A stretch of 64,000 nucleotides of DNA from Candidatus Campbellbacteria bacterium (GCA_024653945.1 JANLIT010000002.1:146508-210507); one strand, 5' to 3'; shown: positions 1,797 to 36,850, counted from the first letter of the stretch. Numbers and translations are program-made. The notes: generated by a model not told the origin, from the sequence alone.

Positions 1797-1849
1797 TGTG
1801 TTACGTGCTATATGTTACATGCTACATGTTATATGCTACATGTTACATG
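1797..1849 (+). repeat. Tandem ~14-nt repeat TGTTACATGCTACA (x3.5) ending in the start codon of the SpoU gene
   Basis: Sequence ttacgtgctatatgttacatgctacatgttatatgctacatgttacatgaac. Related copies occur at 9505-9547 and 36753-36850. Confidence 0.7.
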
Positions 1850-2302
1850 AACACATACGTCATCCTTGATAACATTCGAAGCGTGCATAATGTCGGTTCT
1901 ATTTTCCGTACCTGTGATGCTGCGGGTGTTACGAAACTCTACTTGTGTGGACTTACGCCGATACCAGTGGACCGATTCGGGCGCGTGCGAAAAGATATGG
2001 CAAAAGTTGCGCTTGGTGCGGAAAAGAACGCTGCGTGGGAGTATGCATACAATACACAGGATGTAATTGAAAAACTAAAACAAGATGGAGTTTGGATTGT
2101 TGCCGTTGAGCAAAACCCACATTCAAAGCTCTGTACCGATATATCGGTACAGGGACCGATCGCGTTTGTATTTGGTGGGGAAGTGGCTGGTATTTCAAAA
2201 GAAATCCTCAAGATGTGTGATGAAATAATTGAAATTCCTATGCGCGGGAAAAAAGAATCACTCAACGTATCTGTTACTGTCGGCATTATTCTTTTTAGAT
2301 AA
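1847..2302 (+). CDS. SpoU/TrmH-family RNA 2'-O-methyltransferase
   Basis: Motifs LDNIRSVHNVGSIFRTCDAAG ... VFGGEVAGIS ... IPMRGKKESLNVSV are typical of SpoU methylases. The upstream in-frame extension of the ORF overlaps tRNA-Lys and was discarded. Confidence 0.75.
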   Translation: MNTYVILDNIRSVHNVGSIFRTCDAAGVTKLYLCGLTPIPVDRFGRVRKDMAKVALGAEKNAAWEYAYNTQDVIEKLKQDGVWIVAVEQNPHSKLCTDISVQGPIAFVFGGEVAGISKEILKMCDEIIEIPMRGKKESLNVSVTVGIILFR

Positions 2303-2312
2303 ATGACGTCCT

Positions 2313-2340
2313 CCCCGCAGTAGCCTGCGGGGTTTCCTGT
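2313..2340. terminator. Rho-independent terminator hairpin
   Basis: Inverted repeat ccccgcag tagc ctgcgggg followed by tttcctgtt. Confidence 0.6.
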
Positions 2341-2418
2341 TACATTAAAAAAGGACCGCAATGCTTCGCAGTCCCCAGAATGCGGGAGGGTGTTACCCCT
2401 CTGCACGCTCTTGTCGTC

Positions 2419-2712
2419 TTACCGAACGAAGATTTGGAGGACCATCTCTCCTTGCTTGGTCTTGAAGTGACGCTCGCTTCCTTCACCTTCTTCGGAGAAT
2501 GTCACCGAAAGAGGGATCTCGAAAGTCCCAAGGCTGGGGGGATTACTCCCCGTGTCCTCAAACTCCACCACCAAGAGCTCTCGATTCGTATCGACCGTGA
2601 GGCCCTTGATAACACCACCGGACAACTCGTTGTTCTGATTCCTCACAACTCTGCCCGTTGGGGCAGATTTTGCAACATCTTCCCATCCCTTGTCCTGAAT
2701 GAATCTGATCAT
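2419..2712 (-). CDS. Hypothetical small protein (GC-rich ORFan with strong SD)
   Basis: GAGGAGG sits 6 nt upstream of the ATG (MIRFIQDKGW...). GC content is clearly above that of neighbouring genes. No recognisable family. Confidence 0.5.
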   Translation of the reverse strand: MIRFIQDKGWEDVAKSAPTGRVVRNQNNELSGGVIKGLTVDTNRELLVVEFEDTGSNPPSLGTFEIPLSVTFSEEGEGSERHFKTKQGEMVLQIFVR

Positions 2713-2789
2713 ACATACCTCCTCAGCCAAGTGGCCGAAAGTTGACTTCTGGAAGCACTGTAGAGTATTTAGTGTCTTACGTCAAGTAT

Positions 2790-3764
2790 TTAACGATATT
2801 CAAGAATATCAACCACTTTTCCCGTGTCATCAATAAGGGCGATTGCCTCACGCCTTTCTCGCCACAGAGTCTTACTTGAACCCAAAAAGAGTCGCCACGT
2901 ATTTCCTAAAAAGTCAGAATCTGTTTTGTGTAGTTCGAGACATCCATCATATGTGGAATACGTACGTATAAAAGCTCTACAAAAACTAGGGGTGGTGCTT
3001 GCATAGGTTCCGCGGTCACACGAACCAGTGTTTTCAATGCCATCCATGCACGCGTCGTATTCTTCTTCATCGTCAAATGCGTCTGGTGTAATGCCAAATG
3101 ACACAAGGTCTTCATCTTCTAGGAGGGGACACGACTGCCACATACTTGGATTAAAGTTGTAACTACGGTTCAAATATCCTGTACATTTGTTTTCTAAAAA
3201 TCCCGTGTTTATTCCAACTGCGTATCGCGAATTTATAATCGCCCGCTCGCCTGGTGCAAGAAAGACGTTTTGTTCTTTTTTCCACGGCTGGTTACCTTCA
3301 AGAACGGCAACACCTTTTGGTATAGCAACACGAGTACCAGAAACCAGACTTTCAAGTTTCCATCCAGAAATAACAATCGGGGCAGTATTTGCACCACTGG
3401 CTTCAATGATGAGATATTCATCACGAGAATTTTGTGTGTAGGTATTACCCGCGCTCAAAGTAATCATTCCGTGGTATACAGATTGGTTTTTTTCATCAAG
3501 GGCCTCTTGTACCGCCCGTGCAATTTTTGCAATTTCATCTTCAATACGGTTTAATTCGCCCTGTTTGTATTCTGCGTCACTGACAACGCCATCATTATTG
3601 TTGTCATATGAACGGGTGTATGCCGCAGAACTTTCAATAGAATCAGTACCACCCAAAAAACTGTATGACGAAGAATTATTAAGGACGGGAACAGTTTCTT
3701 GTACGTACGAGATAAAAAAGACGGCCGCAATGATAAAAAAAAGAAATTTGACGAGGTCGTTCAT
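2790..3764 (-). CDS. Membrane-anchored secreted protein, possible lamin-tail-like domain
   Basis: N-terminal TM helix FLFFIIAAVFFISYV. Segment VISGWKLES...GTRVAIPKGVAVLEGNQ...LAPGERAIIN resembles an LTD fold. Cys-rich C-terminus. Confidence 0.5.
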   Translation of the reverse strand: MNDLVKFLFFIIAAVFFISYVQETVPVLNNSSSYSFLGGTDSIESSAAYTRSYDNNNDGVVSDAEYKQGELNRIEDEIAKIARAVQEALDEKNQSVYHGMITLSAGNTYTQNSRDEYLIIEASGANTAPIVISGWKLESLVSGTRVAIPKGVAVLEGNQPWKKEQNVFLAPGERAIINSRYAVGINTGFLENKCTGYLNRSYNFNPSMWQSCPLLEDEDLVSFGITPDAFDDEEEYDACMDGIENTGSCDRGTYASTTPSFCRAFIRTYSTYDGCLELHKTDSDFLGNTWRLFLGSSKTLWRERREAIALIDDTGKVVDILEYR

Positions 3765-3812
3765 ATAAAGTAGAGGTTGGAAGTTGGATATGGGAAGTTG
3801 GAATGGGGGTGA

Positions 3813-5102
3813 TTAGTTTAGTTTTTTCAACTCTTCTCTGACTACCGTTGCGTCGTCCCAAGGTATTTTACTCCCATTCGGACCCATAATATACGGGTCG
3901 GTACCTTTGCCGGTTATAAGAACAGCAACACGCGCGTGGGGGTTTGTTGTAGCCATTTTTTGGGCCAGTACGAGTGCTTCATGGAGGGCCTCTCGTCTAT
4001 CAAGAATAATAGAAAGTTTTGATGTATCTTGTATACCCTCCGCCATTTGTTCTAGAATTTTTTGAGGGTCTTCGTCATATGGGTCTTCGTTGGTGAGAAA
4101 AATATGTTGGCAAGATGCTTCGGCAATACGCGCCATTTCAGGGCGCTTCCATGTGTCGCGTCCACCTCCAGTATTTCCAAGAACACCAACAACTCGAGAA
4201 AGAGAGAATGCCTCATAGATGCTTTTTAGTGAATCAGGTGTGTGTGCGTAGTCCACCACCACATCAAACGCTTGGCCTTCTCGTATAAATTCTGCACGCC
4301 CAGGAACGCTGGTTACACTTTCTAGCCCCTCTTTTATTTTCTGGGGTGGAATGTTTTGGCTCTGTGCAAAAGTTGCAGCCGATAGTGCGTTATACACATT
4401 AAAAAGTCCTGGAATAGCGAGATGGATACGCTCTCCACCAAATCCAAACTCATAACCCGTGCTTGTTTGGCTGTACGGTTTTGCGTCTGAAAGATGAAAA
4501 GGAAATGCACGATTGGCGCCACACTCTAAAAACGAAAGTGCCTCAGCATCGTCTGCGTTTGCAATAATCGCAGTATTTTGTTTGTGTGAGTGTGCAAGTT
4601 GTTGTGCGACAGACAATTTTGCATCGCGATAGTTCTCAAATGAGCCGTGTGATTCAAGGTGTTCGGGCGCGAGATTGGTAAAAATAAGCGCATCCATGGC
4701 AATCCATTTGTGGCGGAACTGTTTCGCACCCTCACTCGTCATTTCAATGATTGCCCAATCACATTTCTCAGTAACTGCGTTACGCAGAAACTTTTGCACA
4801 AAAAATCGCCCCGGAATCGTCATTTTGTAGAGGTTGCGTGTTTCGGTGTCGGCAACTTTGAAACGAATGGTGCCAAGAAGCGCGGTTGTGTATCCCGCGG
4901 ACTCAAGAATTGCATTTACCAACTCTGCTGTTGTTGATTTTCCTTTGGTGCCGGTGATGGCAACAACTTTGATATGGCGAGAAGGGAAGCGATAGACAAG
5001 CGTACCGAGGAGGGCGAGTTTCCAGTGGTAGATTGGTTGCAATGCCGTAAACAGCTTTGTGGGAATGAACCGTTTGATGAACCGAAGAGTTTTGTTGAGC
5101 AT
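3813..5102 (-). CDS. murE: UDP-N-acetylmuramoyl-tripeptide synthetase (Mur ligase, MurE-type)
   Basis: ITGTKGKSTT P-loop, DYAHTPDSL motif, Mur ligase middle and C-terminal domains. Confidence 0.75.
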   Translation of the reverse strand: MLNKTLRFIKRFIPTKLFTALQPIYHWKLALLGTLVYRFPSRHIKVVAITGTKGKSTTAELVNAILESAGYTTALLGTIRFKVADTETRNLYKMTIPGRFFVQKFLRNAVTEKCDWAIIEMTSEGAKQFRHKWIAMDALIFTNLAPEHLESHGSFENYRDAKLSVAQQLAHSHKQNTAIIANADDAEALSFLECGANRAFPFHLSDAKPYSQTSTGYEFGFGGERIHLAIPGLFNVYNALSAATFAQSQNIPPQKIKEGLESVTSVPGRAEFIREGQAFDVVVDYAHTPDSLKSIYEAFSLSRVVGVLGNTGGGRDTWKRPEMARIAEASCQHIFLTNEDPYDEDPQKILEQMAEGIQDTSKLSIILDRREALHEALVLAQKMATTNPHARVAVLITGKGTDPYIMGPNGSKIPWDDATVVREELKKLN

Positions 5103-5152
5103 GCTTGTTTATCAAGGTTAAACCTCGATATATCGAGGTTTAACCTTGATGA

Positions 5153-5722
5153 TTACCTGCCACCGAGAATTTTTAGGGCTTCTTTTATGCGTTCGTTTGT
5201 GCCGATTTTTGATACATCAATTTTTTTCACCGCATCACGTGCCTCTGTTTGTGAGTAACCCAATGACACAAGCACTTCCACCACATCAGCATCTTCACGA
5301 AGTTCTCCGCCCATCTCGCCGCGACTGCCGAGTCGGTCTTTGAGCGTTACCACAATGCGCTCTGCAGTTTTCTTTCCAATGCCGGATACTTTGGTGAGGT
5401 AGGTAATATTTTCTTCAGCAATAGCACGTCGAAGTGTCTCGGCACTTGCAAGCGAGAGTACGGCAAGAGCGGACTTCGGACCAATGCCCGGTACCGCTAA
5501 GAGCATTTCAAAAAATGCCAATTCGTCGCGGTCGGCAAATCCAAACAAATCCATAGATGTTTCGCGCACCGCCATATGCGTCCACAACGAAATCGTGTCA
5601 CCAATTTTTATTTTTGATGCCGTGTCGCGTGCCACATGAACACCGTAGCCAATGCCAGCAACATCAATAACGATGAGTCCTGGTTCTGTGTGAAGTGCTG
5701 TGCCTGAAATGTGGGAAATCAT
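5153..5722 (-). CDS. ruvA: Holliday junction DNA helicase RuvA
   Basis: MISHISGTAL...IDVAGIGYGVHV (OB domain), LLAVPGIGPKSALAVLS and VSGIGKKTAERIV (two HhH), C-terminal domain. Confidence 0.85.
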   Translation of the reverse strand: MISHISGTALHTEPGLIVIDVAGIGYGVHVARDTASKIKIGDTISLWTHMAVRETSMDLFGFADRDELAFFEMLLAVPGIGPKSALAVLSLASAETLRRAIAEENITYLTKVSGIGKKTAERIVVTLKDRLGSRGEMGGELREDADVVEVLVSLGYSQTEARDAVKKIDVSKIGTNERIKEALKILGGR

Positions 5723-5861
5723 ATATGAAGTATAAGCTCAAAATCCAAATATCAAAATCCAAAAACTTTTACTACTTGCTACTTGCTACTTTTCTTGCTA
5801 TGTTTACTACGCTCTACAAACTAAGAAGCTATAAAAGCTACAAGCTAAGAAGCTAATTCCT

Positions 5862-6128
5862 ATGCCAATAATCAAAGCAGCAAAAAAGGCACTTCGCAGT
5901 TCCGCACGAAAGCGTGTGGTTAACTTGCGTCGTACACGTGCCATGAAAGAAGTGGTGAAGGATATTCGCGATCTTACAGGAAAGGGTAGTGTAAAAGATG
6001 CGCAGGCAAAACTCGCCAGTGCCTACCAGGCAATTGATAAGGCGGCAAAACTCGGTATTATCAAAAAGAATGCAGCTTCACGAAAGAAATCACGCCTTGC
6101 CAAACTTCTTAAAAAATCATCGCAATAA
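5862..6128 (+). CDS. rpsT: 30S ribosomal protein S20
   Basis: MPIIKAAKKALRSSARKRVVNLRRTRAMKEV..., basic 88 aa. Confidence 0.85.
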   Translation: MPIIKAAKKALRSSARKRVVNLRRTRAMKEVVKDIRDLTGKGSVKDAQAKLASAYQAIDKAAKLGIIKKNAASRKKSRLAKLLKKSSQ

Positions 6129-6133
6129 TTCTA

Positions 6134-6162
6134 AAAACACCAGCCTCGGGCTGGTGTTTTTG
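6134..6162. terminator. Rho-independent terminator
   Basis: caccagcctcgggctggtg followed by tttttgtttg. Confidence 0.7.
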
Positions 6163-6211
6163 TTTGTGCGGTGGTATTGTCTCGGCAGATTCAACCAAGG
6201 GGAGAAACGCC

Positions 6212-6544
6212 ATGGGGAAGACTGTGTGGTATATCAAACCGAAGAATGGACATACCTCGGAAGCAGTCGGGAGAGTGACTTCCGACGAGGACCTGCGTTA
6301 CGAAATAAGATGCTCCGATGGGGTTAAGAGGAATCTTTACCGATGTGAGTGGGGAGTCCTCGAGACCGCCTTGGGCTCGGCGGAGAACATCTATCTTCAC
6401 TTCAATGTCTGGAGACAACGGGGGACCAGTCTTCCGGCGCCCTTTGATCCACGAAAGGTGTTCGTGGGGAAGGAGCCTCCTAAGGTTCAAGCACGTACAT
6501 GGCTCGCCAAGCAGAAGGCGCGCAAGGCCGCTCACACGTCGTGA
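6212..6544 (+). CDS. Hypothetical small basic protein (GC-rich ORFan with SD)
   Basis: AAGGGGAG lies 7 nt upstream of the ATG (MGKTVWYIKPKNGH...). GC content is well above flanking genes. A hairpin terminator overlaps the stop codon. Confidence 0.5.
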   Translation: MGKTVWYIKPKNGHTSEAVGRVTSDEDLRYEIRCSDGVKRNLYRCEWGVLETALGSAENIYLHFNVWRQRGTSLPAPFDPRKVFVGKEPPKVQARTWLAKQKARKAAHTS

Positions 6545-6557
6545 GCGGTTGTTTTTT
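6528..6557. terminator. Terminator hairpin
   Basis: ccgctcacacgtcgtgagcgg followed by ttgttttttt. Confidence 0.6.
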
Positions 6558-6567
6558 TATCTAGAAT

Positions 6568-7143
6568 CTATTCAACAAGATATTTTTCAATCAAACGTCG
6601 GGCAACTTTATTGAGAAGTATGATAACGACAATAATAAGCGCAATGCCAACCTCAAGTCGTGGAAGAAAATGTTGTGTTGAAAAGAGAGAGGCACTGAGC
6701 ACGTATGCCAAAACCCAAATAACGGATGACCACACAAACGTGGTGATTATGTTTGCTTCAAGGAATTGCTTTATGGGAACACCAATCATTCCCATACGAA
6801 TAAGTGTTGGACGACTCAAACCGTATAGAAAACGGGTGATGAGAAGTGATTTAAATATGTGCGCATGAAAAAGATGGTCAAATTGTCCTGCTTCACGGGT
6901 AACCCATGCGCTTATTTTTTTAGAGAGCGAAAGATTGGTGCCGAGCAAGAACCACAACAAATCACCGATAAAAACTCCAAGAAGTGTTATAGCGAGAATA
7001 TCGTAAAAGTTCAAAGAACCTTGGTGTACAAGAAAGGCGGCAAGAAAAAGAGTAAGCTCACCTTCAATGAGTAGTCCAACAAAAATGAGAACGTATGCGA
7101 ATACGTGGTATGTCTGAAGATACTGAAGAAATAGTGTGTGCAT
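6568..7143 (-). CDS. DedA/SNARE-associated family membrane protein
   Basis: Multi-TM protein: GLLIEGELTLFLAAFL, LLGVFIGDLLWFLLG, FLYGLSRPTLIRMGMIGV. Start taken at the ATG at 7141-7143 because the upstream part of the ORF overlaps tRNA-Ser. Confidence 0.7.
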   Translation of the reverse strand: MHTLFLQYLQTYHVFAYVLIFVGLLIEGELTLFLAAFLVHQGSLNFYDILAITLLGVFIGDLLWFLLGTNLSLSKKISAWVTREAGQFDHLFHAHIFKSLLITRFLYGLSRPTLIRMGMIGVPIKQFLEANIITTFVWSSVIWVLAYVLSASLFSTQHFLPRLEVGIALIIVVIILLNKVARRLIEKYLVE

Positions 7144-7144
7144 C

Positions 7145-7234: not shown

Positions 7235-7279
7235 AGTACCAAGAAGATACTAACAAAGTCCTCTTTGAGCAAGGTGTAG

Positions 7280-9082: not shown

Positions 9083-9471
9083 TTCTCGGCATTGATTACG
9101 GAACAAAACGAGTTGGGGTTGCACTCTCGGATACAAGCGAAACGCTTGCATTTCCGCGAGAGGTTTTGCAAAACACAAAGTCGCTCGTAGCCGACATTGC
9201 CGGCATTGTTGCAAAAGAAAATGCGAACATTATTGTGATCGGTCATTCAACGGATACAAAAGGTAAAGATAACCCTGTCATGATTGCAATTCAGAGTTTT
9301 AAAGAAAAACTTGAGAAGGAAATAAACGTGCCAGTTGTGTTTGAACGTGAGTGGTTTTCTTCACAGGAGGCGACACGATTTACGGGTGCAAATAGTATGA
9401 TAGATGCATCGGCTGCCGCAATTATTTTGCAGAGATTTTTAGATAGAAAGAGGGGGGCACAAAACAGATAA
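9079..9471 (+). CDS. ruvX: Putative pre-16S rRNA nuclease / Holliday junction resolvase-like YqgF
   Basis: MILGIDYGTKRVGVALSD N-terminus, RNase H-like fold size (130 aa). Confidence 0.8.
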   Translation: MILGIDYGTKRVGVALSDTSETLAFPREVLQNTKSLVADIAGIVAKENANIIVIGHSTDTKGKDNPVMIAIQSFKEKLEKEINVPVVFEREWFSSQEATRFTGANSMIDASAAAIILQRFLDRKRGAQNR

Positions 9472-9504
9472 CATGTAACTTGAAACAAAATGTGTGGAAT
9501 AATA

Positions 9505-9547
9505 GTGTTACACGTTACATGCTACGTGTTACATAATTCATAACATA
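9505..9547 (+). repeat. GTTACATG-family motif cluster ending in the start codon
   Basis: gtgttacacgttacatgctacgtgttacataattcataacatatg. Confidence 0.6.
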
Positions 9548-9885
9548 TGATTACCATCGACCAATTAAAAACCGCAGATATTCGTATCGGACAAATTCTT
9601 TCTGCAGAAGAAGTTCCCGAGACAGACAAACTCCTTAGACTTACTGTTTCTTTTGGTGAAGAGACACCACGTCAAATTATTTCTGGAATTAAACAGTACG
9701 TTGCTGATATACAAACACTCGTGGGCAAAAAAACCGCATTTGTAGTAAACCTTGAACCCCGCACCATTAAAGGACTTGAAAGCAACGGCATGTTGTTTGC
9801 TGTCTCGACGGGTGAGGGTGAAGAACGACAGTTTTCTTTCATTGTCCCCGAGAGAGACATACCGCCAGGCGCCCGTTTGGGTTAG
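9547..9885 (+). CDS. tRNA-binding domain protein (CsaA / MetRS C-terminal-like)
   Basis: DIRIGQILSAEEVPETDKLLRLTVSFGEE..RQIISGIKQY matches the tRNA_bind OB-fold consensus. Confidence 0.75.
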   Translation: MITIDQLKTADIRIGQILSAEEVPETDKLLRLTVSFGEETPRQIISGIKQYVADIQTLVGKKTAFVVNLEPRTIKGLESNGMLFAVSTGEGEERQFSFIVPERDIPPGARLG

Positions 9886-11059: not shown

Positions 11060-11707
11060 GTGGTTAATTTGCTTCCAATAAAAAATCAACACATCGTTGC
11101 GTGGGAGCGTCGCGGGAGGGCTCTCCTTGTCGTTTTGATATTTGCTATTTGTTCATTGATTCTTTTGATATTTTTTCTTGCGCCGTCGCTCATTCTCGCA
11201 CGGTCTGCGGTAGGTGGATTTACAGACCAATTGGTTGCCACAAAAACACTTGTTGATTTACAACGGCGACAAAGTGGTACAGAAGTGTTGACAGACATAC
11301 AAACGCGCTCTGACCTCTTGAAAGATGTGTTATCACAGAGATCTTTGACGTCAATTCTTCAAGAGGTGATGCCACGAATTCCAAATGGGGTTTCTCTTCA
11401 ACAAATAACATACAGTACTCAAAAAAAAGAGATATCAGTAACACTTAAAGGAATTGCACAAACACGAAATGCATTGACGTCTCTCGGCGATTCGTTGCGT
11501 TCATCTCCACTATTCTCACGCGTTGATATTCCTGTTTCAAGTTTGGCACGAAGTGTAGATATTGATTTTACTGTAACACTTTTGTTGGAGATGGCAGGAG
11601 ACGTTGTTGAATACGCGGGGACACCAAGAACGAACGTGCCGTTGCCTGAAATGGGCACAGGGACATCAGCGACAACAGGTGCGCTGATAGAAAAAATAAC
11701 ACCATGA
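11060..11707 (+). CDS. pilN: PilN-like pilus assembly protein
   Basis: MVNLLPIKNQHIVAWERRGRALLVVLIFAICSLILLIFF: N-terminal LLP motif plus a single TM, typical of PilN. Confidence 0.6.
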   Translation: MVNLLPIKNQHIVAWERRGRALLVVLIFAICSLILLIFFLAPSLILARSAVGGFTDQLVATKTLVDLQRRQSGTEVLTDIQTRSDLLKDVLSQRSLTSILQEVMPRIPNGVSLQQITYSTQKKEISVTLKGIAQTRNALTSLGDSLRSSPLFSRVDIPVSSLARSVDIDFTVTLLLEMAGDVVEYAGTPRTNVPLPEMGTGTSATTGALIEKITP

Positions 11708-13526: not shown

Positions 13527-13629
13527 ACTGTAAGCACGAATACCGAATTACAAAAATCGAAACAAGTACGAATATCTTGAATTTCAAAAACAGTTTTTCG
13601 AATTTCGATATTCATATTTCGAATTTACT

Positions 13630-16459: not shown

Positions 16460-16888
16460 CTACTGGATAAAGTTTATAAGGTATTTTTTTATCGTTACCC
16501 GGATATTTTGTAACACTTTTTCACGTGACGTCGGACGGCTTTTTGCAATACCAACTGCAAAATTATATAAATCGTTCTGATCCATCTTTATCCATTTATT
16601 ATTGTGTGCTAGAAAAACAAGTAGTGTCATAATAGCGACTCTTTTATTGCCGTTTTGAAATGGATGATTTTTTATCATCAAATAAAACAACATCGTTGAT
16701 TTTTCAACCAACCCTCTATACATATCTTTTTGGTCAAAGCTGGTAAATGGAACATCTAAACAACTTTCAAGCGCGTTGGGAAGACGTGTCCTAAAGTCAG
16801 GTATCGGCTCATCCCATGTCATTAGCTCTTTTGCTAACGCAAAAGCAGTAAATTCCACCTCTGCCATTGTGATAGGTTTTGTTTTCAT
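16460..16888 (-). CDS. Fic/Doc-family toxin (death-on-curing-like)
   Basis: HPFQNGNKRVA matches the Doc/Fic motif H-x-F-x-(D/N)-G-N-K-R. 142 aa. Confidence 0.7.
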   Translation of the reverse strand: MKTKPITMAEVEFTAFALAKELMTWDEPIPDFRTRLPNALESCLDVPFTSFDQKDMYRGLVEKSTMLFYLMIKNHPFQNGNKRVAIMTLLVFLAHNNKWIKMDQNDLYNFAVGIAKSRPTSREKVLQNIRVTIKKYLINFIQ

Positions 16889-17139
16889 TCCTTGGCCAAT
16901 CTCCTGAATGCTCCTCCGTACTCTTTCACGGCCTTTTTCACTGCCGTTTCAATTTTTTGTTTTCTACTTGAACCAACAGCCTGACCCAACGCTTCCAAAA
17001 GATCTTCGTGGGCGATTACATAATTACGTCCTATTTTTTCGGCCCTTAGTCTTTTACTCTTTATTTTTCTAAAAACCTCCACACGACTTAAGTGCAATAT
17101 TTTTGCTACCTCTGCCGTGGAATAAAATTTTCTGTTCAT
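16885..17139 (-). CDS. HTH (excisionase/MerR-like) DNA-binding protein, probable cognate antitoxin
   Basis: STAEVAKILHLSRVEVFRKIKSKRL is a helix-turn-helix. The gene overlaps the Doc gene by 4 nt. The 30-bp perfect palindrome lies immediately upstream. Confidence 0.6.
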   Translation of the reverse strand: MNRKFYSTAEVAKILHLSRVEVFRKIKSKRLRAEKIGRNYVIAHEDLLEALGQAVGSSRKQKIETAVKKAVKEYGGAFRRLAKE

Positions 17140-17140: not shown

Positions 17141-17170
17141 TTCGTATAGTAACATATGTTACTATACGAA
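17141..17170. promoter_or_regulatory. Perfect 30-bp palindrome, candidate autoregulatory operator of the HTH/Doc operon
   Basis: ttcgtatagtaacat|atgttactatacgaa starts 2 nt upstream of the antitoxin start codon. Confidence 0.6.
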
Positions 17171-17274: not shown

Positions 17275-17294
17275 CCTGCCTGCCGGCAGGCAGG
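17275..17294. repeat. REP-like perfect 20-nt palindrome CCTGCCTGCCGGCAGGCAGG (copy 1 of 4)
   Basis: Flanked by ggaagttagtgg / gggatgttggaagttgg. The other copies are at 20019, 57524 and 59219. Confidence 0.75.
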
Positions 17295-19603: not shown

Positions 19604-19951
19604 ATGAACACAGTACTTCCTTTAGATGTCGTAGTACCGTTTATTGGATTTGTTCTCTTTTTTGTCGTACAAGCAACGGGCAAGACAAGCGAAAAAGCAC
19701 TAACGCTTACTGTGATATTTCTCAGCGGAGGTATTTTTGCATTGCATTACAACGTGGGTGAAATAGCACTTTTCCTACTCGGTCTTGCTTTTGGTTTGGT
19801 AATTGAGATTGGATTACGAAAACTTGGATCGCAACAGAAATGGTCACGTGCATCTCTATTTGGTATTCCATATTGGTTACCATTTGCATGGGGAATTGGA
19901 TTTGTCATTATTACTCGTGTTGGTATTTTTGTCCGCGCTTTCTTTTTGTAA
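19604..19951 (+). CDS. Hypothetical membrane protein (4 TM)
   Basis: Hydrophobic 115 aa. No recognisable family. Confidence 0.45.
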   Translation: MNTVLPLDVVVPFIGFVLFFVVQATGKTSEKALTLTVIFLSGGIFALHYNVGEIALFLLGLAFGLVIEIGLRKLGSQQKWSRASLFGIPYWLPFAWGIGFVIITRVGIFVRAFFL

Positions 19952-20018: not shown

Positions 20019-20038
20019 CCTGCCTGCCGGCAGGCGGG
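20019..20038. repeat. REP-like palindrome, degenerate copy (cctgcctgccggcaggcggg)
   Basis: One mismatch relative to the 20-nt consensus. Confidence 0.6.
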
Positions 20039-20133: not shown

Positions 20134-20163
20134 TTGACAGGTGAACGACCGTTCACCTATACT
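20134..20163 (+). promoter_or_regulatory. Sigma70-like promoter (TTGACA-18-TATACT) with embedded LexA/Cheo-type box GAACGACCGTTC
   Basis: ttgacaggtgaacgaccgttcacctatact is 40 nt upstream of the small ORF that precedes lexA. GAAC-N4-GTTC is the Gram-positive-type SOS box. Confidence 0.65.
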
Positions 20164-20204: not shown

Positions 20205-20399
20205 ATGAAGTACCAAGACTACATACAATATATAGATAAAGAGATTGAGGCCCTTAACTGGACTATTGATGAAAAAATAATGCAAGGAATTTCGTATCGT
20301 TCTGAAGCAAAGAGACACAAAGAGCTGATACGGTGGGCACGACGCAATCGTCGTCCATCACTTTTTAAAAGACTTTCATCAGTCATGGCACTCTTTTAA
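20205..20399 (+). CDS. Small basic protein co-transcribed with lexA
   Basis: 64 aa. Its stop overlaps the lexA start (TAATG). It lies downstream of the SOS-box promoter. Confidence 0.45.
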   Translation: MKYQDYIQYIDKEIEALNWTIDEKIMQGISYRSEAKRHKELIRWARRNRRPSLFKRLSSVMALF

Positions 20400-20971
20400 T
20401 GCTTACCGAGTACACACAAAAACTTCATTCGTTTTATGAAAAGAATAAACGAATGCCAACGTATACAGAGATGGCGAAGCTTTTCGGTTTTAAATCTAAA
20501 AACGCAGTTTTTAAAGTTGTTGAAAAACTTGTTGAAGCGGGTGCAGTAACCAAAGATTATCTCGGACGTCTCACACCAACAATGCTCTTTGGTGAAGTAA
20601 AAATGCTCGGCTTCATTGAGGCGGGTATTCCGTCACCAACAGAAGAACACGAATTTGATTCTCTTACGCTTGATGAGTGGCTCATCAACGATCACAATGC
20701 GACATTCATTCTTAAGGTAAAAGGGGACTCCATGGTGGACGCGGGAATTTTTGAAGGAGATTTCGTACTTGTTGAACGCACCGACACATGGAAGGTGGGG
20801 AATATTGTGGTTGCTGACATTGATGGGTTGTGGACACTCAAATATTTACGTCGTAATGCAGAGGGCTACTATCTCCAACCGGGAAACAAAAAATATCAGA
20901 ATATCTATCCCCAAGAGGAACTCAAAATTGGTGCAGTGGTCCGCTCGGTGATTCGACGGTACGAAAAATAG
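20399..20971 (+). CDS. lexA: LexA repressor
   Basis: N-terminal winged HTH, Ala-Gly-type linker, S24 peptidase domain with GDSM (catalytic Ser) and Lys (VGNIVVADIDGLWTLK). Confidence 0.85.
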   Translation: MLTEYTQKLHSFYEKNKRMPTYTEMAKLFGFKSKNAVFKVVEKLVEAGAVTKDYLGRLTPTMLFGEVKMLGFIEAGIPSPTEEHEFDSLTLDEWLINDHNATFILKVKGDSMVDAGIFEGDFVLVERTDTWKVGNIVVADIDGLWTLKYLRRNAEGYYLQPGNKKYQNIYPQEELKIGAVVRSVIRRYEK

Positions 20972-30667: not shown

Positions 30668-30674
30668 TATCCGT

Positions 30675-31064: not shown

Positions 31065-31135
31065 TTTAATTATTTTCTGGTATATTCTGCACATAATTTT
31101 GAAAAAAGGTATGTGCGGGATATACTCTCTCTGTT

Positions 31136-31678: not shown

Positions 31679-31747
31679 GGGTTTTTTGCACTGTGGTATA
31701 ATGATCTTATTAGTACAGTTGTTTTTATTTAATTTCCATATTTATTT

Positions 31748-32410
31748 ATGCACCAAAAAACTATCTGGGTTCTTATTATTGTTATCCTTCTTGCCGGCGG
31801 TTGGTATTTTATGTCGCGTAAGACGGTGGAAGCTCCTAATGACATAGCAACAACAACACGGCAAGGTTCCGTGGGTACGCTCACTGACGGTGTGTACGCA
31901 CTTGATGTAGAGAAAAGTTCCCTTACATGGACGGGAAGTAAGACACTCATTAAAGAATATTTTGACAACGGAACGCTTTCATTCAAGGAAGGGTCTGTAA
32001 TTGTAACGGGGGGCACTCTTGTTGCGGGTTCGTTTGTTGTTGATATGAAGTCATTCAAAACGATTTCAACAAGCAATCAAAAAGTTCCAGGAAGCGCTCT
32101 GGAGACTCATCTCAAATCGGCAGATTTTTTTGATGTTGCAACGTATCCGATTGCAACCGTTGGTATCAAGAGTGTTGAAAACGGCATCGTGAAAGCGGAC
32201 GTAACCATTAAAAATGTGACGAAGGAGGTTTCTTTCCCGGCAACAATTTCACAAGATGGAAAAACACTTTCAGGCACAGCATCACTGACTCTTGACAGAA
32301 CACTGTGGGACATTCGTTACGGTTCAGGCAAATTCTTTAGTGATCTTGGGGATAAGGTTATTTCAGACTCGGTCAAAATTGACCTTACACTCGTTGCGCA
32401 AAGTAACTAG
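31748..32410 (+). CDS. YceI-like family protein
   Basis: Signal anchor followed by a YceI lipocalin-like domain (LTWTGSKTLIKEYFDNGTLSF...DVATYPIATV...GKTLSGTASLTLDRTLWDI). Confidence 0.75.
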   Translation: MHQKTIWVLIIVILLAGGWYFMSRKTVEAPNDIATTTRQGSVGTLTDGVYALDVEKSSLTWTGSKTLIKEYFDNGTLSFKEGSVIVTGGTLVAGSFVVDMKSFKTISTSNQKVPGSALETHLKSADFFDVATYPIATVGIKSVENGIVKADVTIKNVTKEVSFPATISQDGKTLSGTASLTLDRTLWDIRYGSGKFFSDLGDKVISDSVKIDLTLVAQSN

Positions 32411-32526
32411 CACACAAAGAGATTCAATCTCTAAGAACGACACCACCCTCACTGTGTAACATTTTACTGACCTCGGCGTATACTGGAGTAGATAGTACCA
32501 ATATTAAACAACTAACATTTCATTAT

Positions 32527-33387
32527 ATGGAAACAAGTGCAGTACAAAAAGCGGTAAAGTATCTTGGGTGGCTTTGTATCGTTCTCATTATTTTTGTTGG
32601 TGTTTCAGCATTAAATGCTCTTAAAGAAAACCGCTACATTGGCGGAGGGGTTTCTGCGTCTAACGTCATTACCATCAACGGTGAAGGCGAAGTATTTGCG
32701 GTTCCCGATATTGCAGAAATAGGTTTTTCGGTTTTTGCAGAGAAAAAAACACTAACCGAAGCACAGAGTGTATCGGCAGAAAAGATGAATACAATTCTCG
32801 CATTCCTTAAAGACCAAGGAATTGATGACAAAGATATTAAAACGACCAACTACAGTGCAAATCCGAAATATGAATGGACAAACGAAGTAACGCCAATGTC
32901 TAGTGGTTCGTCTGGTGCCGCAGAGCCTGGATATGGTGGTGTGCAAACATCTGTTGTATATCCTGACTACTACCCACGACCACAAAATCAAGTCATTGTT
33001 GGGTATGAAGTTCGACAAACTATTACCGTGAAAATTCGTGATACAGAGAAAGTCGGGGCACTCGTTTCTGGTATTGGTGAGAAGGGTGCGACCGATATCT
33101 ACGGTCCAACATTTACCATTGATGATGAGGTGGCATTGCAACGCGAAGCACGTCAGAAAGCAATTGATGATGCAAAAAATAAAGCAGAACAATTGGCAAA
33201 AGACCTCGGTGTAAGAATCGTGCGCATTGTAAGTTTCTCGGAAAATGGTGGTGGCTACTACCCAATGATGTTTAAGGGTATGGAAGCAACAGTATCAAGT
33301 GATTCTTCAGTTCCACCCGTCCCCCAAATTCCAGTTGGTGAGAACAAAATCACTGCAAACGTTTCTATTACGTACGAAATTCGCTAG
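32527..33387 (+). CDS. SIMPL-domain protein (YggE/DUF541-like, oxidative stress associated)
   Basis: N-terminal TM then ITINGEGEVFAVPDIAEIGFSV ... ITANVSITYEI, the SIMPL architecture. Confidence 0.7.
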   Translation: METSAVQKAVKYLGWLCIVLIIFVGVSALNALKENRYIGGGVSASNVITINGEGEVFAVPDIAEIGFSVFAEKKTLTEAQSVSAEKMNTILAFLKDQGIDDKDIKTTNYSANPKYEWTNEVTPMSSGSSGAAEPGYGGVQTSVVYPDYYPRPQNQVIVGYEVRQTITVKIRDTEKVGALVSGIGEKGATDIYGPTFTIDDEVALQREARQKAIDDAKNKAEQLAKDLGVRIVRIVSFSENGGGYYPMMFKGMEATVSSDSSVPPVPQIPVGENKITANVSITYEIR

Positions 33388-33420
33388 CTCTGCACTCGTC
33401 TCATATTTTGTAGAAGCACG

Positions 33421-33442
33421 AAAACCGCCTGGTGGCGGTTTT
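33421..33442. terminator. Rho-independent terminator nested in a 14-bp long-range inverted repeat
   Basis: aaaaccgcctggtggcggtttt, flanked by tattttgtagaagc ... gcttctacaaaata. Confidence 0.65.
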
Positions 33443-33502
33443 CTCCTTCCAGCGCCGCCGCGCTTCCAGAGGCTTCTACAAAATAGAGACTCACTCCGTA
33501 CC

Positions 33503-33529
33503 CCGAACTTTTGTGTTACAAAAGTTCGG
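33503..33529. promoter_or_regulatory. CCGAACTTTTGTGTTACAAAAGTTCGG palindrome with conserved flank, upstream of pilB
   Basis: ctccgtaccccgaacttttgtgttacaaaagttcggtgaaaataca is near-identical to 35436-35480 upstream of pilC. Confidence 0.6.
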
Positions 33530-33578
33530 TGAAAATACAAGAAGTGCTACAATATACCTAACACCCTAACACCTTTTC

Positions 33579-35327
33579 ATGCACTTTGATTTACAACAAC
33601 TCATTCAGTTTCTTGTTGATACAAAAATGCTTTCCCTTGGTAAGGCGCAAGAACTTGAAAAACGGGCCCTCGAGCAAAAAATGTCGTTTGAGGATCTCGT
33701 TGTGTCCGAGGGAATTATTCCTGAAGATGATTTGCGGAGAGCAAAATCGCACGTTCTCGGCATTCCATTTGTTGATTTAAAGAATGAAAAAATAGATTTC
33801 AAAACACTGTCGCTCATTCCTGAACCGATTGCTCGTTCAAATAATGTTGTTGCATTTCGTGTTACGGGCACAGATTTAGAGGTTGCCATGTTGGATGTGC
33901 AGGACCTTAAGGCAATTGACTTCATAAAAAAGAAAACAGGTCTTAGCATCCTTCCGCGTCTTACCGATGTTGACTCAATAAAAAATGCACTCATTCAATA
34001 CCAACGAAGTTTGAAATTGGAGTTTGGTGATATTTTGAAAAATGAGGCAGCTGCACTTTCTGCTACATCGGGAAGTGTTGGTGAAAATGCCTCTGGAGAA
34101 ACACTCAAAAAGTTAGCCGAAGATCTTCCCGTGGTACGTATTGTTGAAACGCTTATCCGCCACGCGGTTGTTGAGGGTGCATCTGATATTCATATTGAAC
34201 CCATGGAAAAGGATTTGCTTATTCGGTACCGCATTGACGGACTACTTCATGATGCAATGACCTTACCCAAACAGGTTTCGGCCGGAATAGTCGCGCGCAT
34301 TAAGGTGCTTTCCAATTTAAAACTTGATGAAAAACGACTACCACAGGATGGACGATTTAAAATGGACATTGAAAGTGAACGTGTGAGTTTTCGTGTTTCA
34401 ACACTTCCTATTTACTACGGAGAGAAGATTGTGATGCGTATTCTTCACGAAGGCGCATCCGGTTTTACACTTGAAACACTCGGTTTTCACGGAGAAGGAC
34501 TTGAAGCGCTCCATTGGGCAACAAAGCAGGCAACGGGATTGATTCTTGCAACCGGTCCGACTGGGTCAGGTAAGACAACGACCCTGTATACAGTTTTGGA
34601 TATTCTCAACACACCAGATGTAAACATTTCAACCATTGAAGACCCAATTGAGTATCAGATGCCACGGGTAAATCAGACGCAAGTAAAACCAGAAATAGGG
34701 ATGACGTTTGGAAATGGATTGCGCGCACTTGTTCGTCAGGACCCGGATATTATTATGGTGGGAGAAATTCGTGATGGAGAAACGGTCGGACTTGCAATCA
34801 ACGCCGCATTGACCGGACACCTCGTACTCTCAACAATTCACACAAACTCCGCAGCTGGTGCGGTGCCAAGAATGTTGGACATGGGTGCGGAACCATTTCT
34901 TATCGCATCTACGCTCAAGGTCATTGTTGGTCAGCGTCTTGTGCGTGTTCTTGCACGAAAAGAAAAATATTCTCTGTCTGCGGATGAATTAAAAGCGCTT
35001 GGTAAGTCAGTTGACCTTGATCGCATGCTCGGCTTTCTTATAACCGAAGGATTGGTTGCAAAGAACGCAACGTGGAAAGAAGTTCCGTTCTATCGTCCAA
35101 AAGAAGTGAAAGACGGAGATGATGGATACAAGGGGCGTATTGGTATTCATGAGGTGCTTAAGGTTTCAAGTGCACTACGCGAACTTATGATTAAACGTGC
35201 CTCAATGGAAGAAATGGAAAATCAAGCAAAGAGCGAGGGAATGATGACGATGATTGAGGACGGTGTCTTTAAGGCGGTTATGGGTTTGACGACCCTTGAG
35301 GAGGTGTTGCGTGTGGTTACCGAATAA
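33579..35327 (+). CDS. pilB: Type IV pilus assembly ATPase PilB (GspE family)
   Basis: GPTGSGKTTTLY Walker A, Asp/His boxes, N-terminal GSPII_E domain. 582 aa. Confidence 0.9.
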   Translation: MHFDLQQLIQFLVDTKMLSLGKAQELEKRALEQKMSFEDLVVSEGIIPEDDLRRAKSHVLGIPFVDLKNEKIDFKTLSLIPEPIARSNNVVAFRVTGTDLEVAMLDVQDLKAIDFIKKKTGLSILPRLTDVDSIKNALIQYQRSLKLEFGDILKNEAAALSATSGSVGENASGETLKKLAEDLPVVRIVETLIRHAVVEGASDIHIEPMEKDLLIRYRIDGLLHDAMTLPKQVSAGIVARIKVLSNLKLDEKRLPQDGRFKMDIESERVSFRVSTLPIYYGEKIVMRILHEGASGFTLETLGFHGEGLEALHWATKQATGLILATGPTGSGKTTTLYTVLDILNTPDVNISTIEDPIEYQMPRVNQTQVKPEIGMTFGNGLRALVRQDPDIIMVGEIRDGETVGLAINAALTGHLVLSTIHTNSAAGAVPRMLDMGAEPFLIASTLKVIVGQRLVRVLARKEKYSLSADELKALGKSVDLDRMLGFLITEGLVAKNATWKEVPFYRPKEVKDGDDGYKGRIGIHEVLKVSSALRELMIKRASMEEMENQAKSEGMMTMIEDGVFKAVMGLTTLEEVLRVVTE

Positions 35328-35444
35328 CTCTCCACTCGCCTAGATTGCCTCAAAAGCACGCGTCGTTTTCTGCTGAAAACGCGCTCACTCTCGGACTCAC
35401 GTCCTCCGAGAGTCTTTTTCGGCAATAGGCGAGCTCCGTACCAC

Positions 35445-35467
35445 GAACTTTTGTTGTACAAAAGTTC
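35445..35467. promoter_or_regulatory. GAACTTTTGTTGTACAAAAGTTC palindrome with conserved flank, upstream of pilC
   Basis: gctccgtaccacgaacttttgttgtacaaaagttctgtaaaataca. Confidence 0.6.
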
Positions 35468-35531
35468 TGTAAAATACACAGAATCCACCACGTGTGGGTT
35501 TTTTTGTGCGTAACTATGCGATAATGGTGCT

Positions 35532-36743
35532 ATGCGTTTGAAGTACAAAGCGGTAGCGGCTACAGGTGAAGTCTACGAAAAAATTACGGACGCGGAAGAT
35601 TCATTTGCGCTTGCCAAACAACTCACCGAAGAAGGTGAAACCCTTGTTGTTGCGACCGAAATAAAAGAAAAGGTATGGTATCAGCGATTTAATATTGACT
35701 TCGGAGGTGGTATTAAAATTACAGAGAAGATTACGTTTGCAAAAAATCTTGCAGCAATGGTTGATGCGGGTCTTACAATATCGCGAGGTATCGCAATTAT
35801 GGAACGACAATCAGGAAGTAGAAAGTTTCGTGAAGTACTCTCTCTTATTGGTGCAGAAATTCAAAAAGGAACACCTGTTTCAGCTGCGTTTGCAAAATTT
35901 CCAAAAGTATTTACAACGCTTTTTGTTGCCATGGTTCGTGCTGGAGAAGAATCGGGGAAGCTTGGAGAGGCACTACGTATTACCGCCGAACAGATGGATA
36001 GAAGTTTTGCACTCCGCCGTCGTATTCGTGGTGCGATGATGTATCCAGCCGTTATTATGTCGCTCATGGTGGTTATTGGTATTCTCATGCTCATGTATGT
36101 TGTTCCGACACTGACGACTACCTTTAAAGAATTAAAAGTTGACTTACCAGCAAGCACCCAGTTTATTATTACCATTTCGGACGGACTCGCAAATCATCCA
36201 ATACTCTATATTGGAGGACTCATACTTTTTGTTGTGTTGTGTATGCAGGCACTCCGAACTACTACGGGAAAGCGTCTGTTTGAACGTGCCATCATGCATT
36301 TGCCGGTTATTAAAACACTTGTGCAACAAACAAACTCTGCGCGTATGGCACGAACGTTCGCTTCACTCCTCTCGTCTGGTGTTGAAATTGTGTCAGGTAT
36401 CGGTATTACGAGTGATGTGCTACAGAACTCTTTTTACAAAGCGGTCTTAAAAGAAGCAGAAACAGAAATTCAAAAAGGAACACAACTTTCTGTTGTTTTT
36501 GCGCGGTATCCAAAGTTATATCCGCCCATGGTGACCGAAATGGTTGCTGTTGGAGAAGAAACGGGAAAACTACCGGACATGTTTCTCCAAATTGCGACAT
36601 TCCTTGAAACAGAAGTTGACCAGAAAACAAAAGACATGTCCACGATTATTGAGCCACTCCTGATGGTGGTTATTGGTGCGGCTGTTGGGTTTTTTGCCGT
36701 ATCAATGATTACACCAATTTACTCGCTTTCATCAAGTATTTAG
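35532..36743 (+). CDS. pilC: Type IV pilus inner-membrane platform protein PilC (GspF family)
   Basis: Two T2SSF repeats, 3 TM, 403 aa. Confidence 0.85.
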   Translation: MRLKYKAVAATGEVYEKITDAEDSFALAKQLTEEGETLVVATEIKEKVWYQRFNIDFGGGIKITEKITFAKNLAAMVDAGLTISRGIAIMERQSGSRKFREVLSLIGAEIQKGTPVSAAFAKFPKVFTTLFVAMVRAGEESGKLGEALRITAEQMDRSFALRRRIRGAMMYPAVIMSLMVVIGILMLMYVVPTLTTTFKELKVDLPASTQFIITISDGLANHPILYIGGLILFVVLCMQALRTTTGKRLFERAIMHLPVIKTLVQQTNSARMARTFASLLSSGVEIVSGIGITSDVLQNSFYKAVLKEAETEIQKGTQLSVVFARYPKLYPPMVTEMVAVGEETGKLPDMFLQIATFLETEVDQKTKDMSTIIEPLLMVVIGAAVGFFAVSMITPIYSLSSSI

Positions 36744-36752
36744 GACAAGAGA

Positions 36753-36850
36753 CATGAAACATGTAACAGGAAACATGTACCATGAAGCATAAAACAAATA
36801 ACAAAACACAAGAATCAAATTGTTACATGGTACATGCTACACGACACATG
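36753..36850 (+). repeat. GTTACATG/CATGTAAC motif cluster spanning the pseudopilin start codon
   Basis: catgaaacatgtaacaggaaacatgtaccatg...ttgttacatggtacatgctacacgacacatg. Confidence 0.6.

Follow-up and report, generated by a model that had tools for sequence, protein, structure and literature searches.

Three clusters of a tandem motif containing TACATG were studied in a 64,000-nt stretch of one strand of a Candidatus Campbellbacteria bacterium genome (GCA_024653945.1 JANLIT010000002.1:146508-210507; hereafter the window). The clusters lie at 1797-1849 (site 1), 9505-9547 (site 2) and 36753-36850 (site 3), and run into the starts of three genes encoding a SpoU/TrmH methylase, a tRNA_bind-domain protein and a prepilin-type protein with an N_methyl motif (pseudopilin), respectively. 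They had been noticed in a reading made from the sequence alone (the sequence-only reading), and re-reading of the DNA found the tracts at these coordinates. Tandem TGYTACA arrays span 1799-1849 at site 1, 9505-9549 at site 2 and 36745-36850 at site 3. The true unit is the heptamer TGYTACA (or GYTACAT), and the reverse-complement form of the family unit is TGTRACA/CATGTAA. A 14-nt unit in about 3.5 copies had been proposed for site 1. Tandem Repeats Finder does report period 14 with 3.6 copies at 1799-1849 (89% matches), but it also reports period 7 with 6.9 copies; that is, the period-14 reading corresponds to two heptamers in alternation, and the basic unit is 7 nt. Units at this site match at 75% when compared at period 7 and at 89% when compared at period 14, and no perfect direct repeat is longer than 13 nt. 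The same program gives period 7 with 6.4 copies at 36752-36796. Chains of at least three ACRTG words at 7-nt spacing occur three times in the window, as against none in 100 dinucleotide-preserving shuffles, and all six GTTACATG/CATGTAAC octamers present in the 64 kb fall within the three sites.

The site 1 array (1799-1849, plus strand) is of the right-arm type described below and has about seven heptamers: TGTTACG TGCTATA TGTTACA TGCTACA TGTTATA TGCTACA TGTTACA TG. A spacer at 1727-1798, kept in two related genomes (L210 and L211; loci other than the window are designated by L numbers), separates it from a tRNA-Lys gene on the minus strand (1652-1726). At site 2, a left arm (AACAGATAACATGTAACTTGAAACA, 9458-9487, plus strand) overlaps the RuvX stop codon TAA (9469-9471), and the right arm (9505-9549, plus strand) reads GTTACAC GTTACAT GCTACGT GTTACAT AATTCAT AACATAT G, with the ATG at 9547 in register. 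At site 3, the left arm (36745-36790, plus strand) is made of ACA-bearing heptamers (GACATGA AACATGT AACAGGA AACATGT ACCATGA AGCAT) and starts 2 nt past the pilC stop codon (36741-36743); it is followed on the same strand by an A-rich loop or spacer (36791-36819), delimited from the sequence and from a minimum-free-energy hairpin, and by the right arm TTGTTACATGGTACATGCTACACGACACATG (36820-36850), which holds two candidate pseudopilin starts (36827 and 36848) that are mutually in frame and in the array register. Both unit orientations, which had been described for site 3, are indeed present there, and they occur at site 2 as well (CATGTAAC at 9472). The arms are 80% complementary over 25 nt at site 2 (9463-9487 with 9506-9530) and 73% complementary over 30 nt at site 3 (36760-36789 with 36821-36850). 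Site 1 consists of the right-arm-type array only, and its palindromy is weak or internal. The spacer at 1727-1798 has weak complementarity to the array (73-82% over 11-15 nt) and likely contains a minus-strand tRNA-Lys promoter, TTGTCT-17-TACAGT, as read by eye and under the threshold of the promoter scanner. A left arm for site 1 at 1737-1759 was considered and rejected, the segment being conserved with L210/L211 and more simply explained as the tRNA-Lys promoter region.

The start codon is in register with the 7-nt array at all three sites. For SpoU it is the last array ATG (1847-1849), as the sequence-only reading had it: the Pfam alignment begins at residue 3, and an identical (100%) NCBI protein has 151 aa. 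The site 2 cluster likewise runs into the start of the tRNA_bind protein at ATG 9547, which agrees with an identical (100%) NCBI protein of 112 aa; the related protein of L201 also begins ATGATTAC. Both of these NCBI proteins are labelled Candidatus Campbellbacteria. The pseudopilin start, placed at 36827 in the sequence-only reading, does lie inside the element and is favoured by the short leader peptides of relatives (read by hand), but is ambiguous, since ATGs at 36782, 36827 and 36848 share one frame and all fall within the site 3 element, the N_methyl motif starting directly past 36848. As had also been claimed, the ATG-bearing unit creates starts in several frames. Because the 7-nt period cycles the reading frame, ATGs arise in all three: the 51-nt array of site 1 has two ATGs per frame and is free of stops throughout (~0.012 expected at random). 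More generally, the left arms contain stop codons and the canonical right arm is stop-free in all frames.

The three clusters are one family in a class that is common to this Campbellbacteria genome and related Paceibacteria. Gene calls for the counts that follow were crude longest-ORF (open reading frame) calls, and samples were small. When tandem tracts in the window were counted by lag (4 to 15), 13 were found at lag 7 and 0-6 at any other lag; 80 related loci (1.35 Mb) gave 40 tracts at lag 7 and 1-9 at lags 4, 5, 8, 10, 11 and 13, none of them divisible by three. Rather than being as frequent within genes and far from starts, 72 of 93 lag-7 tracts (77%) are noncoding, although noncoding DNA makes up only ~13% of the sequence, and 42 abut a start codon. 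The 42 start-abutting tracts, all among the 72 noncoding ones, have an AT-rich, G-poor sense strand (A 39%, T 37%, G 10%). An inverted partner within 600 nt was present for 40 of the first 88 arrays surveyed, compared with ~5% expected. In the usual layout, the stop codon of the preceding gene is followed by an A-rich arm, and a T-rich arm leads into the next ATG; the stretch between the arms is a loop, a PF05635 gene or, as in L042, L012 and L121, an intrinsic terminator, and the arrangement CATGTAAC, loop, GTTACATG recurs in the environmental contigs L167, L155, L121, L163 and L138. The ATG content of the motif, to which the sequence-only reading gave the key role, is not the defining feature, because equivalent 7-nt arrays in this genome and its relatives, and many of them, have units without ATG (AAATCC/AAAGCAC, TTCGAAT, GTTGGAA, AGTCTCT and AAGCTA). 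The start-proximal, noncoding enrichment is a property of the whole period-7 class and not of the ATG-containing motif.

Comparison of orthologous junctions in relatives revealed that arrays are gained, lost, replaced and sometimes retained. Between RuvX and tRNA_bind, L203 and L206 have TAA-T-ATG, the window has the TACATG type, and L201, whose protein is 85% identical, has a 64-nt element of AAGTAG/TTTGGAT type that ends in TATACT-N7-ATG. The acylphosphatase/pseudouridine synthase junction is a 6-nt spacer in L206, an AAATCC/AAAGCAC hairpin in L201 and a TTCGAAT hairpin in the window, whereas the polA/holA junction is empty in L203 and carries TTCCAAC, TTCGAAT and AGTCTCT arrays in L211, L206 and the window, respectively. 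The PilC relatives come from Patescibacteria/Parcubacteria metagenome-assembled genomes; the pilC/pseudopilin junction has no element in L001, L003, L005 and L008-L010, and carries four other heptamer families in L002, L006, L007 and L004 and the TACATG family in the window. Upstream of SpoU there is no array in L203 and L206, and L203 has TATAAT-N6-ATG at that place; L210 and L211, with SpoU proteins 78-79% identical, keep an orthologous seven-unit array (GCTACAT GCTACAT GTTTTGT GTTTCGT GTTGTAT GCTACAC GCTACATG), and TATGCT-N9-ATG is kept 5′ of SpoU in the window, L210 and L211. An initial impression of a +21-nt (3-unit) expansion of the window array relative to L210 was dismissed, as MAFFT aligns seven units with seven. 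In L211 the array stays with the gene despite a 422-nt insertion just upstream. This insertion, at 9511-9932 of L211 (an 811-kb Campbellbacteria genome), lies between the tRNA-Lys promoter region and the SpoU array, carries a 76-aa minus-strand ORF and is found in neither the window nor L210.

Sequence identity also extends across unrelated loci. In L155, homology between two copies of the TACATG type runs from CATGTAAC to GTTACAT and covers part of the loop; their flanks are unrelated and their boundaries sharp. Window positions 5728-5765, 5′ of ruvA, match L201 9957-9994, 5′ of tRNA_bind, at 97% over 38 nt; the homology of the two elements covers ~75 nt and takes in TATACT and ATGATT, so that both genomes have the TATACT-N6/7-ATGATT end. 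A second match, between window 13596-13628 and L206 3607-3639, reaches 94% over 33 nt, and in L206 the copy precedes a different gene (holA). Similarly, a PF05635 cassette has a left arm (56339-56369) that agrees at 97% over 31 nt with that of a hairpin separating rpsL from rpsG. Overall, copies of the sister families, in the same or in different genomes, are 94-100% identical, as against ~69-80% for coding DNA among the same genomes. Because the 94-97% identity exceeds that of coding DNA, the elements are either recently spread or constrained. As for the TACATG family itself, the three ACRTG chains (at least three units) in the 64-kb window compare with a single match to the looser ACRYG pattern in 1.49 Mb of relatives, and the family is over-represented in this genome. 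In a metagenome scan for TGYTACATGYTACATG, most of the matches listed were unrelated sequences, some of them resembling eukaryotic microsatellites; a long ORF starts at the last array ATG in 13 of 142 of the matches listed, compared with 20% for a random ATG, and only a CPR-like subset (candidate phyla radiation, on putative taxonomy) is informative.

Several further elements of the class are found in the window. An AGTCTCT-family array (CCAGTCT CTAATCT CCAGTAT CTAGTCT; 277-309, plus strand) lies directly 5′ of a holA-like start at 313. A GTTGGAA/TTCCAAC-family element (3776-3807, minus strand) sits between a Mur-ligase stop codon and the next minus-strand start codon, and the L201 junction holds the same family. 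AAGTAG and TTTGGAT arrays followed by TATACT-N6-ATG of ruvA (5723-5800, minus strand) form the ~75-nt element shared with L201, and period-7 tracts of CAAAATC and CTACTTG were detected at 5739-5796. The CGAAT/TTCGAAT-family hairpin at 13540-13629 (plus strand; tract 13596-13626) is the one that fills the acylphosphatase/pseudouridine synthase junction. On the plus strand, inverted AAAGCAC/AAATCC arrays (56329-56370 and 56761-56799) bracket exactly a PF05635 (23S_rRNA_IVP) gene (56371-56760), the whole cassette spanning 56329-56799; its left arm reads CAAAGCC CAAAATC CAAAGCA CAAAGCT and its right arm TTTGGATTTTGTACTTTGAGCTTTGTGCTTT. All three PF05635 genes encountered lie within inverted arms, the other two being in L005 (152-622; gene 171-551) and L018 (17292-17663). 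These copies belong to other families, and no ORF-bearing copy of the TACATG family was found in the data. The hairpin between rpsL and rpsG (58067-58160, plus strand) is an "empty" one of AAAGCAC/AAATCC type and, judged by its arm, looks like an ORF-less derivative of the PF05635 cassette.

The window also contains other repeats. A GC-rich perfect palindrome, CCTGCCTGCCGGCAGG(CAGG), is present in four copies (17275-17290, 20019-20034, 57524-57539 and 59219-59234). Two of these copies fall within heptamer arrays of the GTTGGAA type. The segment 17271-17304 is identical to the reverse complement of 59209-59242, and in L002 a heptamer arm is broken at 11350 by a related palindrome, CCTGCGCAGGCAGG. 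Between the minus-strand Mur-ligase and ruvA genes, a 40-nt near-perfect inverted repeat, ATCAAGGTTAAACCTCGATAT|ATCGAGGTTTAACCTTGAT (5111-5150), lacks heptamer periodicity. Finally, a hairpin repeated at 33494-33527 and 35434-35467 (91% identical over 34 nt; core GAACTTTTGT..TACAAAAGTTC at 33505-33527 and 35445-35467) precedes a T2SSE-type ATPase gene (33579) and pilC (35532), and could, from its position, serve the pilus genes as a common operator or terminator.

We favour, with a confidence somewhat better than even, the reading that the three clusters are dispersed, probably mobile junction elements resembling REP (repetitive extragenic palindromic) sequences, MITEs (miniature inverted-repeat transposable elements) and foldback elements. 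The features that the elements share with REP sequences and MITEs are dispersed intergenic copies, imperfect palindromy and presence/absence polymorphism at orthologous sites. A number of observations weigh against this reading. No inter-copy blastn match at E<1e-4 was obtained among the three copies in the window, the unit being all that they have in common. No target-site duplication and no defined termini or terminal inverted repeats were found, a 7-nt direct repeat (ATAACAT) flanking site 2 only. No REP-associated tyrosine transposase (RAYT) or other transposase was seen, although no systematic search was made, and no sigma-70-type -35/-10 pair was detected at the three sites. Furthermore, the identity of 94-97% across genomes could reflect a conserved binding factor rather than mobility, and the SpoU array with the conserved TATGCTACAYGYTACATG is kept in three genomes at ~78% protein identity, a retention that suggests functional constraint and not a neutral passenger.

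The pairing of the arms raises the alternative that the elements act as mRNA hairpins, the arms hiding the start codon, which lies in the 3′ arm, until translation of the upstream gene as far as its stop codon at the base of the 5′ arm opens the stem (coupling) or RNase III cuts it and frees a short-leader or leaderless mRNA. Compared with shuffled sequences, folding is strong in L042 (z = -5.9), L007 (z = -3.8) and site 3 (z = -2.9), where 36773-36784 pairs with 36827-36837; the arms begin at a stop codon and finish at a start codon; and leaderless geometry is apparently used by the genome. In addition, the PF05635 genes sit between such arms in three out of three cases, and these genes are known from 23S rRNA intervening sequences that are processed by RNase III. 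However, folding at sites 1 and 2 does not stand out from that of shuffled sequences (z = -0.7 and -0.4), site 1 has no same-strand upstream gene, and the same layout exists between convergent genes in L042. Moreover, among sense-strand mismatches in 26 hairpins of known transcription direction, G·U (19) is not more frequent than A·C (36), the other, non-wobble types numbering 91. Sense and antisense folding energies showed no consistent bias, and in the TACATG family the antisense strand equals or surpasses the sense strand. Selection for RNA structure was rejected on this wobble test and the strand comparison, and Rfam covariance models run over the whole window yielded only seven tRNAs at gathering score, with no match at the elements. 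Taken together, the mismatch types, the folding, the strand comparison and the lack of an Rfam match indicate that the palindromes probably arise and decay at the DNA level and are not a selected mRNA structure. We consider the hairpin explanation fairly unlikely.

The sequence-only reading had also suggested a translation-initiation or leader element. The tracts are non-random, intergenic and start-adjacent, and a translational role is conceivable, but it receives no support from RNA structure and orthologous junctions exist without a tract: since these are empty (TAA-T-ATG) or filled by another family, the tract is not needed to express the genes. One form of this idea is that a single-strand nucleic-acid-binding protein with a ~7-nt footprint (cold-shock, S1 or similar) coats the repeats 5′ of the start codon and aids or regulates initiation. 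It would account for the 42 of 72 noncoding arrays that abut a start, for their AT-rich, G-poor sense strand and for the conservation of unit families across genomes, and precedent and candidate proteins are discussed by MacGregor (2015, PMC4679880) for the TAACTGA repeats of Beggiatoaceae. The description of the genome as largely without Shine-Dalgarno (SD) sequences, on which the idea also draws, is roughly right, as SD-like words precede 8 of 82 crudely called starts, which is no enrichment over the 7.7% background. On the other hand, many unit sequences exist side by side, arrays also occur after stop codons or beside terminators, the orthologous genes work without arrays, and no binding protein was identified in this analysis. 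A binding array appears unlikely to us.

Transcription offers another possibility, namely that the TACATG arrays are promoters, in which tandem weak -10-like hexamers (nATGyT, TATATG) would give short-leader or leaderless transcripts at array ATGs. SpoU heads a transcription unit, with tRNA-Lys and an HD-domain gene upstream on the other strand, and because these neighbours lie on the other strand it needs its own promoter within ~120 nt; outside the tRNA promoter region, the L210 spacer is essentially all array. Promoter activity inside or beside the SpoU array is thus plausible on positional grounds. Weak -10-like hexamers are present at the TACATG sites, as TATGCT-N9-ATG for SpoU and CATAAT-N9-ATG for tRNA_bind (CATAAT lying 9 nt 5′ of ATG 9547). 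The SpoU hexamer and its spacing are shared by the window, L210 and L211; the L203 ortholog has its TATAAT-N6-ATG at the same place; a TGTTATA variant unit is found near the 3′ end of the array in L167, L155, L117 and L190; and a sister family has TATACT-N6/7-ATG. Nevertheless, the three sites show no consensus promoter, TATATG lacks the critical T at -7, the TATA-containing units of site 1 precede out-of-frame ATGs (as read by eye), the geometry in L155 is inconsistent, and site 3 lies inside the pilus operon. No terminator was found at the three sites either. As a general account of the TACATG arrays, the promoter explanation is in our view quite unlikely. At the level of the genome, TAnnnT hexamers 5-8 nt 5′ of ATG were found at 12 of the 82 crudely called gene starts, as against 4.6%, an enrichment of ~3-fold, and examples of leaderless geometry are TATACT-N6-ATG at ruvA (5722, minus strand) and at a gene at 19604, as well as the start at 35532. 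The absence of SD enrichment together with the TAnnnT enrichment suggests that leaderless or very short-leader mRNAs are frequent.

A phase-variable tract, with expression turned on and off or adjusted by slippage in steps of 7 or 14 nt, was a further proposal of the sequence-only reading. A 13-nt perfect direct repeat (ATGCTACATGTTA) does occur at 1819 and 1833, unrelated metagenome contigs with the same flanks and perfect (TGTTACA)n differ by whole units (L095/L113 versus L186 versus L129; L110 versus L126), and seven-base simple sequence repeats (SSRs) are known to phase-vary the hmw genes of Haemophilus influenzae (PMC12721329, PMC8262952). At site 1, however, identity between units reaches only 75% at period 7 and 89% when period 14 is taken; since the arrays precede the start codon, changes in unit number would keep the gene in frame (if the last ATG is used); and the genes concerned are housekeeping genes. 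In addition, the SpoU arrays have seven units in each of the window, L210 and L211, while independent assemblies of the relatives are 100% identical and hence uninformative on copy number. The proposal is unsupported for these imperfect repeats, with no variation in copy number seen, and we consider it very unlikely. The (TGTTACA)n contigs (L095, L113, L129, L186, L110 and L126) carry, on the opposite strand, repeated ATG-TAA start-stop units between a GGAGG and a downstream ATG.

The symmetry of the words themselves, TGTWACA being a 7-bp and ACATGT a 6-bp palindrome, could recall operator arrays bound by a sequence-specific transcription factor such as LexA or a nearby HTH_17 protein, and a perfect 30-bp palindrome containing GTAACATATGTTAC does occur at 17141-17170, 5′ of an HTH_17 + Fic/Doc operon. 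Yet GTAACATATGTTAC-like matches are near chance (5 versus 3.1 expected), the downstream genes are functionally unrelated, there are many other unit families, and the LexA-type box of the genome differs. LexA or another operator was therefore rejected, the LexA-type box being GAAC-N4-GTTC and the resemblance to the HTH_17 palindrome not significant; we regard this explanation as extremely improbable. That palindrome (TTCGTATAGTAACATATGTTACTATACGAA) abuts the start of a minus-strand operon of an HTH_17 gene (16885-17139) and a Fic/Doc-family gene (16460-16888) and, from this position, is probably the autoregulatory operator of a toxin-antitoxin-like pair. The LexA-type box (GTGAACGACCGTTCAC, GAAC-N4-GTTC, 20141-20156) lies 5′ of a 64-aa ORF (20205-20399) and a Peptidase_S24/LexA-like gene (20399-20971).

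Taken as a whole, the sequence-only interpretation is partly supported, and the dispersed junction elements that we favour can be set beside several known systems. REP sequences, bacterial interspersed mosaic elements (BIMEs) and MITEs are short, dispersed, imperfectly palindromic intergenic repeats. The present elements resemble them in their presence/absence differences between relatives and in families conserved across related genomes, but no transposase was seen, although no systematic search was made, no defined terminal inverted repeats or target-site duplications were found, and the arms are arrays of 7-bp sub-repeats. Arms built of sub-repeats are a trait of eukaryotic Foldback transposons. 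The 23S rRNA intervening sequences have a PF05635 ORF inside a long stem, and the PF05635 genes observed here are similarly bracketed by long inverted arms; unlike the intervening sequences, these cassettes are located between protein-coding genes and not in rRNA, and their arms are heptamer arrays. The short tandemly repeated repetitive sequences (STRRs) of cyanobacteria are heptamer repeats in simple direct arrays. A MITE of Porphyromonas gingivalis reportedly contains a minisatellite (PMC4596501). Long simple sequence repeats (LSSRs) of heptanucleotides (Mrazek et al. 2007, as summarised in PMC4679880) comprise several intergenic heptamer families with period 7 favoured. LSSRs and STRRs share with the present class the favoured noncoding length of 7, several families per genome and intergenic placement, but are described as direct arrays, without palindromic pairing, stop-to-start placement or reuse at different junctions across genomes.

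The TAACTGA heptamers of marine Beggiatoaceae, some cyanobacteria and Bacteroidetes, whose function is unknown (MacGregor 2015, PMC4679880), come in sets of 2-6 or more copies, mostly a few nt 5′ of starts, including those of ribosomal-protein operons. Like the class to which the TACATG arrays belong, they are 7-nt tandem units in intergenic positions near the starts of unrelated genes in SD-poor genomes. They differ in that one heptamer is dominant and 169 of 170 sets are direct repeats (PMC4679880), which does not apply here: the present class has several unit families, about half of its arrays form inverted pairs, arrays also follow stop codons, and the TACATG unit contains ATG. Putative mobile promoters are recognised by highly similar upstream sequences before non-homologous genes (Matus-Garcia et al. 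2012, PMC3488235; Nijveen et al. 2012, PMC3575422). Such homologous upstream sequence before non-homologous genes was seen for sister families, as with the AAGTAG/TTTGGAT element and its TATACT-N6/7-ATG before ruvA in the window and tRNA_bind in L201; TACATG loci, by contrast, are similar at the level of the unit only, with no canonical promoter evident. In H. influenzae hmw1A and hmw2A, 7-bp SSRs lie between the promoter region and the start codon; they are reported (PMC12721329, PMC8262952) to be perfect, long and demonstrably variable and to control surface adhesins, whereas the TACATG arrays are imperfect, have equal counts in orthologs and precede housekeeping genes.

The anatomy of the junction elements, their enrichment, their turnover at orthologous junctions and the identity between loci were observed directly, and their mobility, slippage and promoter activity are inferred. 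The elements would spread between junctions by copy-and-paste or by recombination, and slipped-strand events would resize and homogenise them. They may persist at stop/start junctions because a genome that is ~90% coding has hardly any other DNA to spare. Where a TACATG element abuts a gene, one array ATG would serve as the initiation codon or sit in register with it; overlap with start codons in this family would follow from a right-arm unit that has an ATG, cycles through the frames and lacks stops. The main effect in the cell would most likely be on the next gene, whose promoter and 5′ end they would supply or modify, a role as an SD substitute or a phase switch being less likely; in the sister family, the predicted promoter sequence is of the canonical leaderless type (TATACT, 6-7 nt, ATG). 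A bolder proposal, which we put forward as doubtful, is that Patescibacteria of the Campbellbacteria/Paceibacteria harbour undescribed foldback-type mobile elements of several families, with arms built from repeated 7-bp units. These would have a form with a PF05635 (Avd/23S-IVS-protein-like) ORF, from which the ORF-less hairpins would be derived, and would target stop/start junctions, where they would serve as portable intergenic regions; stop codons would come from the left arm, and a leaderless-type promoter and/or a start in any frame from the right arm, so that operons might be rewired in SD-poor genomes. In the literature on CPR heptamer repeats and on PF05635 with repeats, we found no account of such elements in CPR genomes.

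CPR/Patescibacteria have tiny, gene-dense genomes in which transcription and translation start are poorly understood. The elements repeatedly fill the 1-nt gaps of formerly coupled genes, and some bring a -10 box together with a start codon. Gene callers will misplace starts in arrays that have ATGs in three frames, and parts of an array may be translated as an N-terminal extension, as with the MVHATRHM-type prepilin leader that would begin at 36827 and that in L005 reads MVHDSRSM. As passive repeats, if that is what they are, the elements would be a useful marker of lineage-specific repeat blooms and a further case of the unexplained prokaryotic preference for heptanucleotides. Should they prove mobile, they would offer streamlined genomes a source of regulatory change.

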